This document shows positions 22,488-28,831 of a stretch of 53,396 nt of DNA, piece by piece. The stretch comes from Elusimicrobiota bacterium (lineage in GTDB: Bacteria; Elusimicrobiota; Elusimicrobia; UBA1565; UBA9628). Position 1 is the first letter of the stretch, and every line of letters begins with the position of its first letter. A program made the position numbers and the translations under genes. The notes beneath the pieces are model-generated. The model ran no database searches. It saw only the letters and a program-made list of their open reading frames with translations, and was not told the DNA's origin. The stretch covers positions 1-53,396 of the forward strand of contig DAHVNA010000009.1 in NCBI GenBank assembly GCA_027319565.1, given 5' to 3'.

Positions 22488-24323
22488 ATGGAGAAACCAA
22501 CCCTCCTTTACGACGGAGACTGTTATTTCTGCCGAAGCTGGGTTGCGCGCTGGAAAAAAACCTCCCAAGGCCGCGTTGAATTCCGCGCTTATCAGGAAGC
22601 TGGGCATCTATTTCCGGAGATTCCACCGAAAGATTTTGAATCCGCAATCCAGCTCATTGATTCCCATCAACGTTTTTCGGGCGCAGAAGCTATTTTTAGA
22701 ACCCTCGCCCTAGGCGGGAAAAAATGGCCTCTTTTTCTCTATCAAAAACTCCCACTTTTTAAGCCTCTCAGCGAAGGAAGCTATCGCCTTATCGCTTCTC
22801 GCCGCGGTTTTTTTTCTAGGATTACTAGGCTTTTGTGGGGACATCATCTGGAAAAGCCGGGATACGCGTTTTCTTCCTGGGTTTTTACGCGACTTCTGGG
22901 CGCCGCTTATTTTTTCGCTTTTGGAGCGCTCATATTTCAATGGAAGGGTCTGTGGTCGAGAGAAGGAATACTCCCCTCTGGGATTTATCTTGACGCGCTA
23001 AAATCTCACCTGGGGTTTAAGGCCTATTTTTTTTCTCCCACCCTTTGCTGGATATTCCGCCAAGACGCATTTTTAGGCTTTTTAGCGTGGGGCGGCGCCC
23101 TTTTTTCCTTATTAATAGCCTGCGGAATCTGGGAGGGCCCTTCCATTTTAATGTGTTGGCTTTTCTACTCTTCCTTGGTCGGAGTAGGGCAGGACTTTCT
23201 CAGTTTCCAATGGGATATCCTGCTTTTGGAAACGAGCCTTATCGCCTGTTGGATGTTTCCATGGAGATTTTGGAGAGGCCTTGAAATTGAAGAACCCCGA
23301 GTAATCCCACGAATTCTCTTAACGCTTTTGTTGTTTAAACTTTTTTTCGAGTCCGGCTTGGTCAAGGTTTTAAGCGGAGACCCCACCTGGAGTAATTTTA
23401 CGGCGCTGTTTTACCATTACCAAACCCAGCCGCTCCCGACCTGGATTGGTTGGTGGGCCGCCCAATGTCCCCATTGGTTTCTTGAAATCTCCGTGGCGGC
23501 CGTTTTAGCCATCGAGTTGGGAACGCCTTTTCTGCTGTTTTTCCCCCGCCGGGTCAAAATGTTGGGAGGAACGCTCATGATTTTCCTTCAAACCTTGATT
23601 GCCCTGACCGGAAACTACGGTTTTTTTAATTGGCTCGCGATCGCCCTTTGCGTTCTTTGTTTCGACGATTTTTTCTTTCAAAACTTTTTTCGAAAATGGA
23701 GCTTAAAATTTCGCCTAATTACCGCAGAATCTCAGCTCCCAGGATGGAAAAAAGCGCTTCTCTTTTCTTTTGCCGGGCTGTGGGGAATTCTCTCTTTGAC
23801 GCAATTGACGGAAATGATCAGGCCTCAAGCGGCGCCCCAAATCCTTGAACGAATGGATGCCGCTTTAAGCCCGCTTCATATCGCCAGTTCCTATGGCCCT
23901 TTCGCGGTGATGACGACCCATCGCTACGAAATCGTCATCCAGGGAAGCGCGGATGGAATCGCTTGGGAAGACTACGATTTTAAATGGAAGCCGCAGGATC
24001 TTAGCCGCGCGCCCTCTTTCATCGAGCCCTATCAGCCGAGGCTTGACTGGCAAATGTGGTTTGAGGCCCTCGAGCCGTATCAAAGACGCTCCTGGTTTAC
24101 CGCGTTTCTGGTGCGGCTGCTTGAAGGTTCTCCCAGCGTATTGTCTCTTTTAAAAAGCAACCCTTTTATCGCGGGTCCGCCCAAATACGTGCGCGCTCTC
24201 TTTTACGAATATCATTTCACGACGCCCAAGGAACGCCGTTTGAGCGGACATTGGTGGAAACGGGAATTTAAAGGGGCCTATTGCCCTATTTTAGCCTTAC
24301 AAGGAGATCAAAATGGCTCTTAG
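22488..24323 (+). CDS. Lipase maturation factor (LMF1) family membrane protein with N-terminal DCC1/DUF393 thiol-disulfide domain
   Basis: LYDGDCYFC; FLSFQWDILLLET, HYQTQPLP, TGNYGFFNWL, PYQPRLDWQMWF. Confidence 0.9.
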   Translation: MEKPTLLYDGDCYFCRSWVARWKKTSQGRVEFRAYQEAGHLFPEIPPKDFESAIQLIDSHQRFSGAEAIFRTLALGGKKWPLFLYQKLPLFKPLSEGSYRLIASRRGFFSRITRLLWGHHLEKPGYAFSSWVFTRLLGAAYFFAFGALIFQWKGLWSREGILPSGIYLDALKSHLGFKAYFFSPTLCWIFRQDAFLGFLAWGGALFSLLIACGIWEGPSILMCWLFYSSLVGVGQDFLSFQWDILLLETSLIACWMFPWRFWRGLEIEEPRVIPRILLTLLLFKLFFESGLVKVLSGDPTWSNFTALFYHYQTQPLPTWIGWWAAQCPHWFLEISVAAVLAIELGTPFLLFFPRRVKMLGGTLMIFLQTLIALTGNYGFFNWLAIALCVLCFDDFFFQNFFRKWSLKFRLITAESQLPGWKKALLFSFAGLWGILSLTQLTEMIRPQAAPQILERMDAALSPLHIASSYGPFAVMTTHRYEIVIQGSADGIAWEDYDFKWKPQDLSRAPSFIEPYQPRLDWQMWFEALEPYQRRSWFTAFLVRLLEGSPSVLSLLKSNPFIAGPPKYVRALFYEYHFTTPKERRLSGHWWKREFKGAYCPILALQGDQNGS

Positions 24324-25290: not shown

Positions 25291-26040
25291 ATGAGTTCCG
25301 TTCAAAACGCGACTATGGAAATGGAAGAGAAAAAACTCGATCTGCGGGAAAAAGGCAGCATTAAAGACGGCCAGGCGCAGTTTCTGGATGAGAGGTTGTT
25401 TATTCAGATTCAGGTTTTCACCGGATGCGAGGACCTAAAAGCCTTAATCCCTTCCCTTGAAAAATCAAACATCCCAGCCGTTCTTTACGAAAGCCTGCAT
25501 GATCCAAAGGGAATTGGGCTTTTGACTATGAGCAAAAATCCCGCGGATTTTTTCACCCGCGCGCGCGGCCTTTTTGCCTTAAGTCCCTGGAAGGAATTAT
25601 CTCTTAAGCCCGGCTATTCTTTTTTTGGCCGCACGTATTCCCTGGGATATGAGCCGAATCTGGAAGACTGGCTCTTGAAGCGCCCAAAGCGCGTGGTTTT
25701 AGACGAGCAATTTCCCTGGGCCGTGTGGTATCCGCTCAGAAGGACCGGAGCTTTCTCCCGGTTAGCTCATCAGGAACAAATGCAGATTTTAAAAGAACAT
25801 GGTCAAATCGGCCGCCTCTTTGGAGATTCGGGCCTAGCCCAGGACATACGGCTGTCTTGCACGGGTCTTGACCCAAACGACAACGATTTTGTCATCGGTC
25901 TCATCGGCAAAGAGCTTTTCCCCCTCTCGGCTTTAGTGGAAAAAATGAGGCCGACACAACAAACCTCGACCTACATCCAAAACATGGGACCCTTTTTTAT
26001 AGGACGGGCAGTCTGGAAAAGCCCAAAAACGGAGGATTAA
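25291..26040 (+). CDS. Chlorite dismutase/HemQ (ChdC) family heme-binding protein
   Basis: WYPLRR, LKEHGQIG (proximal His), CTGLDPNDNDFVIG, MGPFFIGR. Confidence 0.8.
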   Translation: MSSVQNATMEMEEKKLDLREKGSIKDGQAQFLDERLFIQIQVFTGCEDLKALIPSLEKSNIPAVLYESLHDPKGIGLLTMSKNPADFFTRARGLFALSPWKELSLKPGYSFFGRTYSLGYEPNLEDWLLKRPKRVVLDEQFPWAVWYPLRRTGAFSRLAHQEQMQILKEHGQIGRLFGDSGLAQDIRLSCTGLDPNDNDFVIGLIGKELFPLSALVEKMRPTQQTSTYIQNMGPFFIGRAVWKSPKTED

Positions 26041-26043
26041 ACG

Positions 26044-26493
26044 ATGACTCAGCCAACCGCGGAAAAACGCATTTTTAAAATCAAGATGTCCAAGCGATGC
26101 TTTCGCTTTAAACCCGAGGCTTTGATGAACCACGCCCCGCACGCTCCGGGAATTTATGAGTTCGTGGTTTTTGACGCCCAGGGAAACGGGACTATTCTCT
26201 ACGTCGGTTTGGCTCTTCCGCCCTTGACCATCCATGAAGCGCTCAGGCGACATTTGGAAAACGAGATGTCTCCCAAAGCCGAAGTTCTTTTCCAGAAAAC
26301 TCCCGATGTCTACTTTGATTATGTCGCCGGTGGAGATATCGAATCGACAGATGACCTCAAGGATATCGCCTCTTCTCTCTTTCAAAAAAACAAGCCCGTC
26401 CTCAACGAAAAGCCGTGGGACGCTTCCGGACGATACGCATCCGTTGAGACAGAAGAAATGGAGCAGGGCCCTGGCGGAGGCTGCCGCTCATAA
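26044..26493 (+). CDS. Hypothetical protein with a GIY-YIG-like fold
   Basis: PHAPGIYEF...ILYVGLA...KPVLN pattern; sits between two genes with tight spacing. Confidence 0.6.
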
Positions 26494-26504
26494 AGGAGAA
26501 AGCC

Positions 26505-27878
26505 ATGGCTTCTTATAAAAAAATTCAAGTTCCTCAGGAAGGGAAAAAAATCGAATTAAAAAACGGAAAACTGTCCGTTCCCGATTTCCCCATCATTCCC
26601 TTTTTCGCCGGAGACGGAACCGGCCCCGATATCTGGCGGGCGACCCGGCATGTTTTAGATCAAGCTGTTAAGACCGCTTACTCCGGCAAGAAAAAAATCG
26701 TCTGGATGGAAATTTATGCCGGGCTCTCGGCCCTCAAGCGCTACGATAAAGACACTGTTTTACCGCAGGAGACCTTGGACGCCATCAATGAATTTCGCGT
26801 CGCGATAAAAGGTCCCCTCACCACCCCGGTCGGCGGACACAAATTCGTCTGTCTGGTCTGTTCGGCCGAGCAAAACGAGGAAAACGGGCGGCGTCCGGAA
26901 AAATGCGTTAAATGCGGTTCCGAATGGGTCACGCCGCGTTTTCGTTCCGTCAACGTTCAACTGAGGCAAAAGCTGGATCTTTACGCCTGCGTCAGGCCCG
27001 TTCGCTGGTTTAAAGGCGTTCCCTGCCCGGTCAAAGAGCCGGAAAAATTTAACATCGTCATCTTCCGCGAGAATACCGAGGATGTCTATGCGGGCATTGA
27101 ATTTGAGAATGGAACTCCGGAACAAAAAAAGGTCTATGAATTTTTGACCAAGGAAATGGGAAAAAAATTTAACGCCGACAGCGGGATTGGAATTAAACCC
27201 ATCTCCAAAACCGGCACCCAGCGTTTGGTGCGAATGGCCATTCAATACGCCGTCGATCACCAAAAGCCGTCGGTCACCATTGTTCACAAGGGCAATATCC
27301 AGAAATTTACCGAAGGCGCCTTCCGCGATTGGGGATATGAAGTTGCCAAGACCGAGTTCCGGGATAAAATCGTCACCGAGGCGGAGTTGTGGGATAAACA
27401 CAACGGGAAAATGCCCGCGGGAAAAATCCTCATTAAAGACCGCATCGCCGACCAAACCTTTCAGCAGCTCCTCTTAAGGCCCGATGAATACAGCGTTTTG
27501 GCGACGCCCAACCTCAACGGCGATTATATTTCAGACGCGGCCGCGGCCCAGGTCGGAGGTTTGGGAATTGCCCCCGGCGCCAATATCGGGGATCAAGCGG
27601 CTCTCTTTGAAGCGACCCACGGCACCGCGCCGAAATATACCGACAAGGACATGGTCAACCCCGGCTCATTAATTTTGTCGGGAGTCATGATGCTTGAGCA
27701 TCTCGGCTGGCAGGAAGCGGCGAACTTAATTGTCTTGGCTCTTGAACAGACGATTCAAGATAAAACCGTGACCTATGATCTTGAACGCCAGATGACGGGG
27801 GCCAAGAAACTCAAAACCTCCGAATTCGGGGAAGCCATCGCTCGCCACATGGGAAAAGCGGCTTCTGTTGCGGCGTGA
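26505..27878 (+). CDS. icd: Isocitrate dehydrogenase (NADP, E. coli-type dimeric) with a Cys4 insertion
   Basis: [79 protein letters not shown]. Confidence 0.96.
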
Positions 27879-28831
27879 ACGAAAAAAACCAAAACCTTAG
27901 CGTCATCATTCCGGTCTATAATGAAGAGGAAAGCCTTCCCTCCTTCGCGGAAGAGTTGATTGCGGCGGTCTCAAAAATCCCGATGCCTTGGGAGATTATT
28001 TTTGTCGACGACGGCTCTTCCGACAAGTCCCAAGAGACGATAAAAAAAATCGCCTCTACCGACAAACGGGTCAAGGGCGTATTTTTGGGAAGAAACGCGG
28101 GGCAAACCTCGGCATTATCTGCCGGCATTCAAAAATCTTCGGGAACCCTGATCGCCTGCCTTGACGCCGACGGTCAAAACGACCCCAAGGATATCGAACG
28201 CCTCATTTCCAAACTCAACGAAGGCTATGACGTCGTCAGCGGATGGAGAAAACACCGCAAAGACCCTTGGCTTAACCGCAGGCTTCCCTCTCAAATAGCC
28301 AACGCGCTTATCTCCCGGGTCACCGGAGTCTATTTGCACGACTATGGATGCAGTCTTAAACTTTACAAGGCCGAATATCTAAAACCGATTCGGCTTTACG
28401 GAGAGATGCACCGTTTTGTCCCGGCCTTCGCCGGATTTCTGGGAGCCAGAATCACGGAGCTGGAAGTCAATCATCGCCCTCGTCTGAAGGGAAAATCCAA
28501 ATACGGAATTTCCCGGACGCTCAAAGTCATTCTAGATTTGGCGACCGTTAAATTCATGGATTCCTATATGGCCAAGCCCATTTACCTTTTCGGCGGAGGC
28601 GGAATCCTCATGATGTTTCTGGGAATGCTTGCCGCGGCAATCACCCTCTACAAAAAGCTCGCTCTGGGAATCTTTGTCAAGGATCAGCCGCTCTTTCAAG
28701 TGGCGATTTTCTTTTCTTTGATTGGTTTTCAGCTTCTGCTCTTGGGGCTTTTGGCCGAGATTTTAGTCCGCACCTATTTTGACATCAAGGATAAAAATTC
28801 TTATTTTATCCGCGAAACGGTCGGTTTTTAA
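27875..28831 (+). CDS. Glycosyltransferase family 2 (ArnC/GtrB-like, membrane-anchored)
   Basis: [32 protein letters not shown], two C-terminal TM helices. Confidence 0.93.

Follow-up and report, generated by a model that had tools for sequence, protein, structure and literature searches.

Described systems that resemble the enzyme and its insert

Isocitrate dehydrogenase (IDH) is among the most thoroughly studied enzymes, and its phosphorylation loop is the textbook example of control by phosphorylation in an active site. In Escherichia coli Icd, Ser113 binds isocitrate and is the target of AceK; the loop in which it lies, also termed the C-d loop, touches the NADP ribose and isocitrate in IDH complexes and is disordered in an apo archaeal IDH (accessible part of PMC6313988). 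The IDH of Bacillus subtilis (1hqs) also belongs to the type I NADP-IDHs and has an insertion specific to its lineage, which alters access to the phosphorylation site and limits that of the E. coli kinase/phosphatase, according to the accessible part of PMC3590139.

A zinc knuckle in a mobile active-site cover is described for adenylate kinase, an enzyme of different function and fold: the lid of the Gram-positive enzyme contains a Cys-x2-Cys-x16-Cys-x2-Cys/Asp motif (bioRxiv 10.1101/840603, accessible part). This lid is native to all adenylate kinases, whereas the module described below has been inserted into the enzyme and is missing from most IDHs. The best single-domain sequence match to this module is the rubredoxin-like zinc β-ribbon of the Pf0610 type (PF23470; 2gmg), which stays below the cut-off of 26 bits. 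The matches to PF23470 and 2gmg cover the second knuckle only, and Pf0610 is an archaeal protein that stands by itself rather than within an enzyme.

At least 256 IDHs of poorly known phyla have a conserved predicted metal-knuckle module in that very phosphorylation loop. They are unstudied enzymes from uncultivated bacteria. An IDH with this module is encoded in the window analysed here, i.e., the whole 53,396-nucleotide stretch of an Elusimicrobiota contig.

The gene and its product

The gene is read from the forward strand and preceded by a ribosome-binding site:

26494..26498, + strand: ribosome-binding site AGGAG, 6 nt 5' of the ATG at 26505 (read off the sequence)
26505..27878, + strand: gene for an NADP-dependent IDH of 457 aa, E. 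coli type, homodimeric class (TIGR00183, NF005425, Pfam Iso_dh, AF2 model)

The encoded protein belongs to the prokaryotic homodimeric NADP-IDHs (TIGR00183, type I). It scores 648.9 bits with the curated family model TIGR00183 (cut-off 567.3) and 624.4 bits with NF005425 (cut-off 490), while the Pfam Iso_dh match (297.8 bits) is split into two stretches. With E. coli Icd (1ai2, 1cw1) it shares approx. 60% identity, the fold, the catalytic and NADP residues and the predicted dimer. Its full-length AF2 model (mean pLDDT 90.9) superimposes on E. coli 1cw1 with a Z score of 53.2 and an rmsd of 1.8 Å over 403 of 415 residues, and the Z score to 2iv0 is also 53.2.

The motifs HGTAPKY and TYDxxR, which looked intact in the preliminary description, are found at residues 372-378 and 423-428 (TYDLER). 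Also kept are K102, T106, T107, S148, N150, R154, R164, R188, Y195, K262, D316, D340 and D344, together with H372, K377, Y378, Y424 and R428. The ten residues from S148 to D344 are invariant or at least 90% conserved in an alignment of 111 sequences (A1), and we take their E. coli counterparts to be the catalytic and substrate-binding residues S113, N115, R119, R129, R153, Y160, K230, D283, D307 and D311. K377, Y378, Y424 and R428 presumably correspond to the NADP-specificity residues K344, Y345, Y391 and R395 of E. coli. Both the catalytic and the NADP-specificity sets are intact.

The enzyme is predicted to form the canonical homodimer. Dimer prediction, proposed as a check in the preliminary description, gave a score of 0.87, versus 0.53 for the best of three controls, with at least 96% of contacts shared between runs and a partner pLDDT of at least 91. 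Of 30 proteins solved as one-chain pairs, 20 come up to the mark applied, as does 1 of 23 solved as single chains, and the pass may reflect prior exposure of the predictor to solved structures, as IDH dimers are already among them. Named at the predicted interface are the clasp and helices known from IDH dimers, and residue 109, which lies just ahead of the insert. None of the residues named at the interface lies within the insert, and the tool treats unnamed residues as uncertain.

Position and predicted fold of the insert

The insert and the residues that define it are located as follows:

26838..26939, + strand: insert of 34 residues (112-145) within the C-d 'phosphorylation' loop, predicted to be a zinc ribbon (PDB alignment, script, AF2)
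26850..26861, + strand: first knuckle, Cys116-Leu-Val-Cys119 (both Cys invariant in 111 aligned sequences)
26904..26915, + strand: second knuckle, Cys134-Val-Lys-Cys137, followed by Gly138 (both Cys invariant)
26946..26948, + strand: codon of Ser148, which aligns with E. coli Ser113 (PDB alignment; invariant in A1)

In a phmmer search against the PDB, residues 5-111 align with residues 3-109 of 1ai2 and residues 146-449 with residues 111-416, and a single Gly of E. coli Icd (G110) is replaced by 34 residues that include four cysteines. The insert runs from HKFVC to VTPR with the pattern C116-x2-C119-x14-C134-x2-C137, and Ser148, within FRSVN, follows three residues later. The preliminary description had placed a Cys4 zinc-ribbon/rubredoxin-like module with exactly these coordinates and cysteines in the phosphorylation loop of an otherwise intact NADP-IDH and had equated Ser148 with Ser113; the analysis supports the former, and the alignment to 1ai2 confirms the latter.

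In the PDB list, each of the best 20 chains of E. coli-type IDH aligns in two stretches with a gap at the insert, and none of them contains it. The alignment to 1hqs also breaks at residues 111/146; the B. subtilis enzyme is therefore without this insert, and its own insertion lies elsewhere in the chain. To our knowledge, no zinc site has been reported for the B. subtilis insertion. The architecture had not been recognised as a described one, and indeed no description of the insert was found in the literature searched or in the PDB. In the accessible part of an Elusimicrobia preprint (10.1101/765248), IDH appears only as a KEGG accession. The ESM Atlas gave no usable match for residues 110-147 and holds no model of this IDH.

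The insert is predicted to be a three-stranded knuckle in which two CxxC turns are brought together. In the full-length AF2 model, its blocks have pLDDT values of 91, 92, 95 and 92; DSSP assigns strands 114-116 and 142-144, which flank both knuckles, and bridges at 122-123, 126 and 129. Folded alone, the insert reaches a pLDDT of 75.3. The best Foldseek rows of the isolated insert are Cys4 zinc or iron knuckles, all of them weak (E 0.35 or worse, with no match at E ≤ 0.001). They include Trm1 (3axs, rmsd 2.2 over 34 residues), rubrerythrin (1nnq, 2.0 over 37), MCM, RPB12, PolD, rubredoxin and the zinc finger of thioredoxin 2 (3p2a, 7d6l). Several adenylate kinase zinc lids are among the best 50 rows, including 1zin (TMq 0.60, rmsd 2.8 over 35), for which the E value of 0.56 denotes likeness to the insert and not demonstrated kinship.

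Sequence profiles gave a similar picture. No zinc-ribbon Pfam model exceeded its cut-off; the score of PF23470 was 14.4 bits for this IDH and 25.3 bits for the related protein P0099. A profile of the insert matched Pf0610 (2gmg) in the PDB with E 0.0064. Matches to C2H2 zinc-finger arrays (2i13, E 3.5e-08) were rejected as evidence of kinship, because the score is a sum over repeats and reflects finger-linker likeness plus the first CxxC.

Conservation, spread and selection

Alignment of homologues, suggested in the preliminary description, showed that the insert and its cysteines are kept in relatives. Among the at least 256 distinct insert-bearing proteins collected, 244 contain CxxC-x9-15-CxxC, and in an insert-centred search the CxxC...CxxC pattern is present in all 120 matches listed. 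With this retention, the four-Cys pattern is not a product of chance. The source labels cover Elusimicrobia, KSB1, Cloacimonadota, Eisenbacteria, Acidobacteria and others. Two large clades of IDHs, A and B, which are distant relatives of each other, contain the insert; in clade B, a related one of the pattern CxxC-x9-CxxC occupies this site.

In alignment A1, V115, C116, C119, E122, C134 and C137 are invariant, and L117, R130, P131, S139, W141, T143 and R145 are at least 90% conserved. The mean frequency of the top residue is 0.74 inside the insert versus 0.81 in the rest of the IDH. The last Cys is followed by Gly in 177 of the 244 Cys4 proteins.

Purifying selection on the insert equals that on the catalytic core in strength. 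In four same-genus pairs, pN is 0-0.025 and pS 0.41-0.63 for the insert (34 codons only), compared with pN 0.016-0.027 and pS 0.42-0.53 for the rest of the gene. That the insert is a tolerated passenger, a neutral loop expansion without a role, is hardly credible in view of this selection, of the ligands kept in 244 of 256 proteins and of its retention in two distantly related clades, even though the insert entered a Gly-rich loop on the surface, one that is disordered in other IDHs (accessible part of PMC6313988).

In 12 of the 256 proteins, which form a nested subgroup, the insert has its usual length but only two of the four cysteines. Ligand-poor lid variants also occur in adenylate kinases of other lineages, and the IDH insert resembles the lid in this respect as well. 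The subgroup suggests a structural module rather than an obligatory Cys4 sensor. Its members share an invariant Cys, His, Cys set that may itself bind metal, and the case that ligands can be lost is therefore weaker.

The insert may have arisen once or twice. A quick IDH tree requires at least two changes of insert state. A careful tree of 63 rows, from which six long-branch insert-free rows were left out, requires two changes in 200 of 200 bootstrap trees, with a backbone support between the clades of only 48-74. Constraining all 49 insert-bearing rows to group together gave a slightly better tree in both tests of this kind (lnL +33.96, p-AU 0.815; lnL +1.82, p-AU 0.525).

A probable metal-stiffened flap and the alternatives to it

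The insert is a predicted zinc ribbon that, on balance, probably serves as a flap, stiffened by metal, where the active-site cleft of an intact NADP-IDH opens. One Zn(II) per subunit would join both knuckles into a rigid body, sitting on a loop that is flexible in other IDHs and touches both isocitrate and the ribose of NADP. This loop would be pre-organised or lengthened by the module, which would move with it on cleft closure, and the effect on the loop would tune substrate or cofactor binding, or stability. What the insert does to the kinetics we purely infer. Six positions separate insert-bearing from insert-free IDHs (L74, L77, V85, L295, G301 and P304; the insert-free set is 20 heterogeneous rows) and could form a docking surface for the insert. 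If its role is structural, nature has here enlisted a zinc knuckle to make a catalytic loop stiffer, much as in the lid of adenylate kinase, and the module would be a useful marker for annotating this IDH subfamily.

A rather unlikely alternative is a thiol redox or zinc-availability switch, in which oxidation of the Zn(Cys)4 site would free zinc and disorder the Ser148 loop, thereby reversibly stopping IDH and its NADPH and 2-oxoglutarate output under oxidative or metal stress. Zn-Cys4 redox switches occur elsewhere, as in Hsp33 and RsrA, but structural Cys4 sites are mostly not switches. The four invariant cysteines, three to thirty-two residues from the catalytic Ser, would suit such a sensor, as would the thioredoxin 2 zinc finger among the weak Foldseek rows, whereas the proteins that hold the insert with only two Cys argue against it. 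The sequencing runs containing this DNA carry the label mine drainage metagenome, which denotes an oxidising environment rich in metals, although four of the six rows may be the source sample; the runs listed include no RNA. Redox-related genes for AhpC/TSA, OYE and a Cld-like protein lie near the IDH gene, but they are not conserved beside it outside the genus, and the upstream pair recurs in only 4 of 32 other loci. Were the switch real, the TCA cycle would be controlled in a new way. Still somewhat less probable is its extension to an undescribed IDH subfamily that spans phyla and whose Zn(Cys)4 module, as a reversible thiol/zinc switch, would gate TCA flow and NADPH output at the very spot where AceK acts in enterobacteria, as convergent control by a different chemistry.

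It is improbable that the ribbon acts as a docking platform, recruiting a regulator or pathway enzyme to the mouth of the active site through protein or nucleic-acid contacts. Zinc ribbons often mediate macromolecular contacts, as the RPB12, MCM and PolD rows illustrate, and the likely surface residues E122, Q123, R130, P131, S139 and W141 are strongly conserved in clade A. This conservation (at least 90% for E122, R130-P131, S139 and W141) exceeds the needs of a bare scaffold, which also counts against a purely structural flap, and points to some specific ligand or contact. Clade B does not share these residues, however, so that no single binding surface is universal across insert-bearing IDHs. 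The insert also has a net charge of approx. +1, counted from its sequence, unlike a nucleic-acid binder. A recurrent neighbour is an ArnC-like GT2 gene, which overlaps the IDH stop codon here and follows IDH in 24 of 32 other loci; at locus L036 from Cloacimonadota it is absent from the 2 kb of downstream sequence, and no candidate partner is kept across the clades.

Sequence alone reads the predicted Cys4 site equally as a Zn or an Fe site. A rubredoxin-type Fe(Cys)4 centre that exchanges electrons with the active site or with an outside acceptor is nevertheless very improbable. The CxxC...CxxCG knuckles would fit it, as would the CPxC of the short-spacer variants, which is also the reading in rubredoxin, and there are weak matches to rubredoxin 1rb9 (E 0.016 over 17 residues) and to rubrerythrin and rubredoxin structures. 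Against this, the typical aromatic core of rubredoxin is not evident, and the Pfam rubredoxin model is absent among the matches listed at E ≤ 10. The NADP-specificity residues, whose roles are those of their E. coli Icd counterparts, are intact, and hydride transfer therefore needs no one-electron centre.

Genome context and the question of AceK

According to the preliminary description, the module could take the place of AceK-type control of TCA flux or block it; this idea finds no footing here. While Ser113 of E. coli Icd is phosphorylated by AceK (accessible part of PMC6313988), no aceK (PF06315) was found in the genome of this organism, which is 91.65% complete, or in any of 41 genomes of the order, some 40 relatives with and without the insert in their IDH among them; the E. 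coli control was positive. The sole match of the isocitrate lyase family in the same genome is the methylisocitrate lyase PrpB (NF008455, 376.7 bits, cut-off 353), which adjoins a fragment of 2-methylcitrate synthase on a contig of 943 bp. It scores 68.5-68.7 bits with isocitrate lyase models, whose cut-offs are 275.9-562, and no isocitrate lyase was found in this incomplete genome. No branch point between IDH and isocitrate lyase is thus seen. With methylisocitrate lyase only and no aceK, a replacement of AceK has nothing to act on here.

Ser148 itself is kept, but its loop is split by the 34-residue module. The insert is likely to act as a rigid flap and not as a substitute for control by a kinase, and we infer that the enzyme has this module throughout the lineage and that it is not a regulator added in this genome.

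Range in sequence collections

At 50% identity, clade A falls into clusters whose representatives are mostly without the insert. Among the 150 representatives listed, two have a Cys4 insert (P0125 and P0195), 60 have none, 87 are off the loop pattern, mostly as fragments, and one is a spurious match. A scan of genome contigs with a 61-aa segment was dominated by the generic AIKGPLTT pattern and says little about range, but the insert was present in 3 of the 80 loci kept from it, namely L035 from Elusimicrobia and L036 and L037 from Cloacimonadota.

The IDH gene and its insert

The NADP-isocitrate dehydrogenase (IDH) of this contig is encoded by a single long ORF, with AGGAG read from the sequence 6 nt upstream of its ATG, and passes the curated prokaryotic NADP-IDH equivalog cut-offs (TIGR00183, 648.9 bits versus 567.3; NF005425, 624.4 bits versus 490).

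26505..27878, + strand: NADP-isocitrate dehydrogenase ORF, 457 aa
26838-26939, + strand: insert, HKFVC through VTPR, residues 112-145 (located by script), with Cys116, Cys119, Cys134 and Cys137; Ser148 lies within FRSVN

Pfam Iso_dh covers the protein as two stretches and skips the insert. A phmmer comparison with the PDB splits the protein into two blocks on E. coli IDH, 5-111 pairing with its residues 3-109 and 146-449 with 111-416, which means that 34 residues replace a single E. coli Gly. ORF and motif placement reproduced exactly the coordinates and Cys spacing that the preliminary description had given, and the phmmer alignment confirms its equation of Ser148 with E. coli Ser113. The interrupted loop is the C-d (phosphorylation) loop. 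According to the accessible part of PMC6313988, this loop bears Ser113, bridges the NADP ribose and isocitrate in ternary complexes and, in one archaeal apo-IDH, is disordered.

None of the best 20 E. coli-type chains in the PDB search contains the insert, and the alignments all break at this point. A full-text literature search, covering a minority of subscription journals, returned no description of the insert in IDH. Source records name the insert-bearing proteins merely NADP-dependent isocitrate dehydrogenase, and in the accessible part of an Elusimicrobia preprint IDH appears as a KEGG accession only. The enzyme is well known; what is new is that its most famous loop bears a conserved, widely distributed and undescribed insert, predicted to be a metal knuckle.

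Enzyme core and dimer model

The catalytic and NADP motifs checked for the preliminary description had looked intact, and all 18 aligned key residues are indeed present: K102, T106, T107, S148, N150, R154, R164, R188, Y195 and K262, as well as D316, D340, D344, H372, K377, Y378, Y424 and R428. They align with E. coli positions that we take, from the E. coli literature, to serve catalysis, metal binding and NADP specificity, and each is invariant or at least 90% conserved across 111 insert-bearing homologues.

The AlphaFold2 model of full-length IDH (mean pLDDT 90.9, pTM 0.91) gives Z 53.2 against E. coli IDH 1cw1, at an rmsd of 1.8 Å over 403/415 residues. Modelled as two copies plus two zinc ions, following an earlier suggestion to predict the dimer, the protein is predicted to form the canonical IDH dimer with a score of 0.87 versus 0.53 for the best of three controls, a mark reached by 20/30 known one-chain pairs and by 1/23 proteins solved as single chains. 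At least 96% of contacts agree between runs, partner pLDDT is at least 91, and the interface parts named are the canonical clasp and helices together with residue 109. Since solved IDH dimers exist, this pass may reflect memory of them.

Fold of the module

The insert blocks of the full-length model have pLDDT values of 91, 92, 95 and 92. Strand 114-116 enters the first knuckle, bridges occur at 122-123, 126 and 129, the second knuckle leads into strand 142-144, and helix d runs from 149. On its own, predicted from an alignment of 28 rows, the insert reaches pLDDT 75.3. This isolated model has zero Foldseek matches at E <= 0.001; many of its best 50 rows are Cys4 knuckle modules.

Foldseek rows among the best 50 for the isolated insert
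Trm1 3axs: rmsd 2.2 over 34
Rubrerythrin 1nnq, rubredoxin-like domain: rmsd 2.0 over 37
Adenylate kinase 1zin, zinc lid: rmsd 2.8 over 35
Archaeal and eukaryotic MCM, RPB12, thioredoxin 2, rubredoxin

PF23470 scores 14.4 bits for this insert and 25.3 bits for that of P0099, a retrieved homologue, both under the cut-off of 26, and the insert profile has weak matches to Pf0610 2gmg (E 0.0064) and rubredoxin 1rb9 (E 0.016). On these sub-threshold scores and weak fold matches, the insert is therefore named a predicted zinc ribbon, its membership in any curated zinc-ribbon family being not proven; it presumably holds a metal.

Distribution, conservation and origin

A first search, with scoring restricted to residues 98-160, found 135 proteins from 1160 candidates, labelled Elusimicrobia, Cloacimonetes and KSB1. 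Among the matches listed, 120/120 have CxxC...CxxC, with the pairs separated by 14 residues, or by 9-10 in a shorter form. An exhaustive search of 50%-identity representatives added P0125, a 52%-identical IDH whose Cys4 insert differs but occupies the identical site. Its insert region as query returned 42 proteins (33 Cys4, 9 two-Cys). A third search gave 434 proteins at E <= 0.001 from 7059 candidates, the low-scoring end of which may contain IDHs that lack the insert and match through their conserved flanks; 12 of the 120 listed are two-Cys, 1 lies outside the pattern and the remainder are Cys4. The divergent set around P0125 (clade B) bears MAG labels from the source records: Gemmatimonadetes, Eisenbacteria, Latescibacterota, Krumholzibacteriia, Acidobacteria/Holophagae, Myxococcota, Planctomycetota and Deltaproteobacteria.

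In total, at least 256 distinct insert-bearing IDHs were collected. The preliminary description had advised mapping Cys conservation and range among homologues: 244/256 are Cys4, with labels from many phyla; the spacers are 9 (124 proteins), 14 (83), 10 (34), 15 (2) and 12 (1). Twelve clade-B IDHs (P0303-P0314) have a 32-residue insert that retains just the first of the four Cys; an invariant His takes the place of the fourth, and a Cys stands two positions after it; their metal site could be altered or lost.

Within its own phylum, the 44-aa insert segment matches 44/401 sampled genomes, clustered in the family UBA9628 (37/47 genomes), with 0/118, 0/47 and 0/89 in three large other families. 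In two genomes of the same order (G024 and G039), IDH aligns as two pieces split at 111/146, and these enzymes are insert-free. In another genome, G022, the IDH match on contig C121 (~25916-27197) consists of two overlapping pieces in different frames, with the break near the insert's first knuckle; a frameshift, pseudogenisation or faulty assembly could each account for it.

Across the 111-row alignment, V115, C116, C119, E122, C134 and C137 are invariant, and L117, R130, P131, S139, W141, T143 and R145 reach at least 90% conservation; averaged over positions, the top residue has a frequency of 0.74 within the insert versus 0.81 in the rest of IDH. Against four same-genus genes (Nei-Gojobori), the insert has pN 0-0.025 and pS 0.41-0.63, counted over just 34 codons, and the rest of the gene pN 0.016-0.027 and pS 0.42-0.53; pairs beyond the genus are saturated.

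Trees were built without the insert columns from each fourth of 110 clade-A rows (IDHs related to the present one), each second of 40 clade-B rows and 20 insert-free representatives. Clade A forms a single clade (SH-aLRT 95 in the first tree, 100/96 in a careful tree of 63 rows with six long-branch insert-free rows excluded), as does clade B (100/100), with the two-Cys forms nested within. The careful tree separates A and B in 200/200 bootstrap trees, with backbone support of only 48-74, and a constraint uniting all 49 insert-bearing rows is not worse (lnL +33.96, p-AU 0.815; second test, lnL +1.82, p-AU 0.525). The trees fit one origin of the insert or two. Both clades have the insertion site in common, as well as the motif V-C-L-x-C...Q...C-x-x-C-G...[VI]-T-x-R-F, which would favour a single gain, then loss or transfer.

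Proposed mechanism and alternatives

Residue 109, two before the insert, contacts the other subunit in the dimer model, which would place the module where the active-site cleft between the subunits opens, at its lip. A single zinc would join both knuckles into one rigid body, which would make the flexible loop stiffer and longer and travel with it during cleft closure. It would most closely resemble the zinc lid of Gram-positive adenylate kinases, which surfaced unprompted in the fold search with the isolated insert. This lid has the pattern Cys-x2-Cys-x16-Cys-x2-Cys/Asp (accessible part of bioRxiv 10.1101/840603).

Possibly, the insert acts as a redox or zinc-availability switch, an idea somewhat weakened by the two-Cys subgroup, although its invariant Cys, His and Cys may still bind metal.

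The proposal that the module replaces or blocks control by the IDH kinase/phosphatase AceK is not supported, and such a device would have no target here: AceK (PF06315) was not found in this genome (2.03 Mb, 111 contigs, 91.65% complete) or in 41 genomes of its order, with a positive E. coli control, and no glyoxylate shunt was seen in the same 91.65% complete genome. A check for aceK and aceA had been advised; no isocitrate lyase was found, the sole match to that family being a methylisocitrate lyase on a 943-bp contig, C91 (NF008455, 376.7 versus cut-off 353). There, the PrpB gene precedes the first part of a 2-methylcitrate synthase gene, a pair that points to the methylcitrate cycle, not the glyoxylate shunt. 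Citrate synthase, aconitase and one 2-oxoacid:ferredoxin oxidoreductase were found, and this IDH is the only one of the genome, the other Iso_dh match, on contig 56, being a paralogue with 38% identity.

Source and gene neighbourhood

The IDH gene is present in public runs labelled mine drainage metagenome, of which four may be the source sample; a fifth comes from another study, with a share of 0.25, and the share of the sixth is small.

22488-24323, + strand: 611-aa protein, DCC1-like thiol-disulfide oxidoreductase domain and lipase-maturation-factor (LMF1) domains
25291-26040, + strand: chlorite-dismutase/HemQ-like protein (Pfam 46.9 bits, weak; HemQ models far under cut-offs)
26044-26493, + strand: 149-aa ORF, ending 12 nt ahead of the IDH start; no Pfam or NCBIfam family
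27875-28831, + strand: ArnC-like family-2 glycosyltransferase (Pfam Glycos_transf_2; NF007986 219.8 bits, under cut-off 529)

The GTG start of the glycosyltransferase overlaps the IDH stop by 4 nt (GTGA), and tblastn places this gene immediately 3' of IDH in 24/32 other loci of relatives (L006-L037), several of those without it being truncated at contig edges; it was not found by tblastn beside the Cloacimonadota locus L036. An IDH-glycosyltransferase operon is unexpected. Upstream, the 149-aa ORF recurs in four same-genus loci only, and the chlorite-dismutase/HemQ-like gene is conserved near IDH within the genus only. Both families of the 611-aa protein, DCC1-like and LMF1, are better known from eukaryotes.
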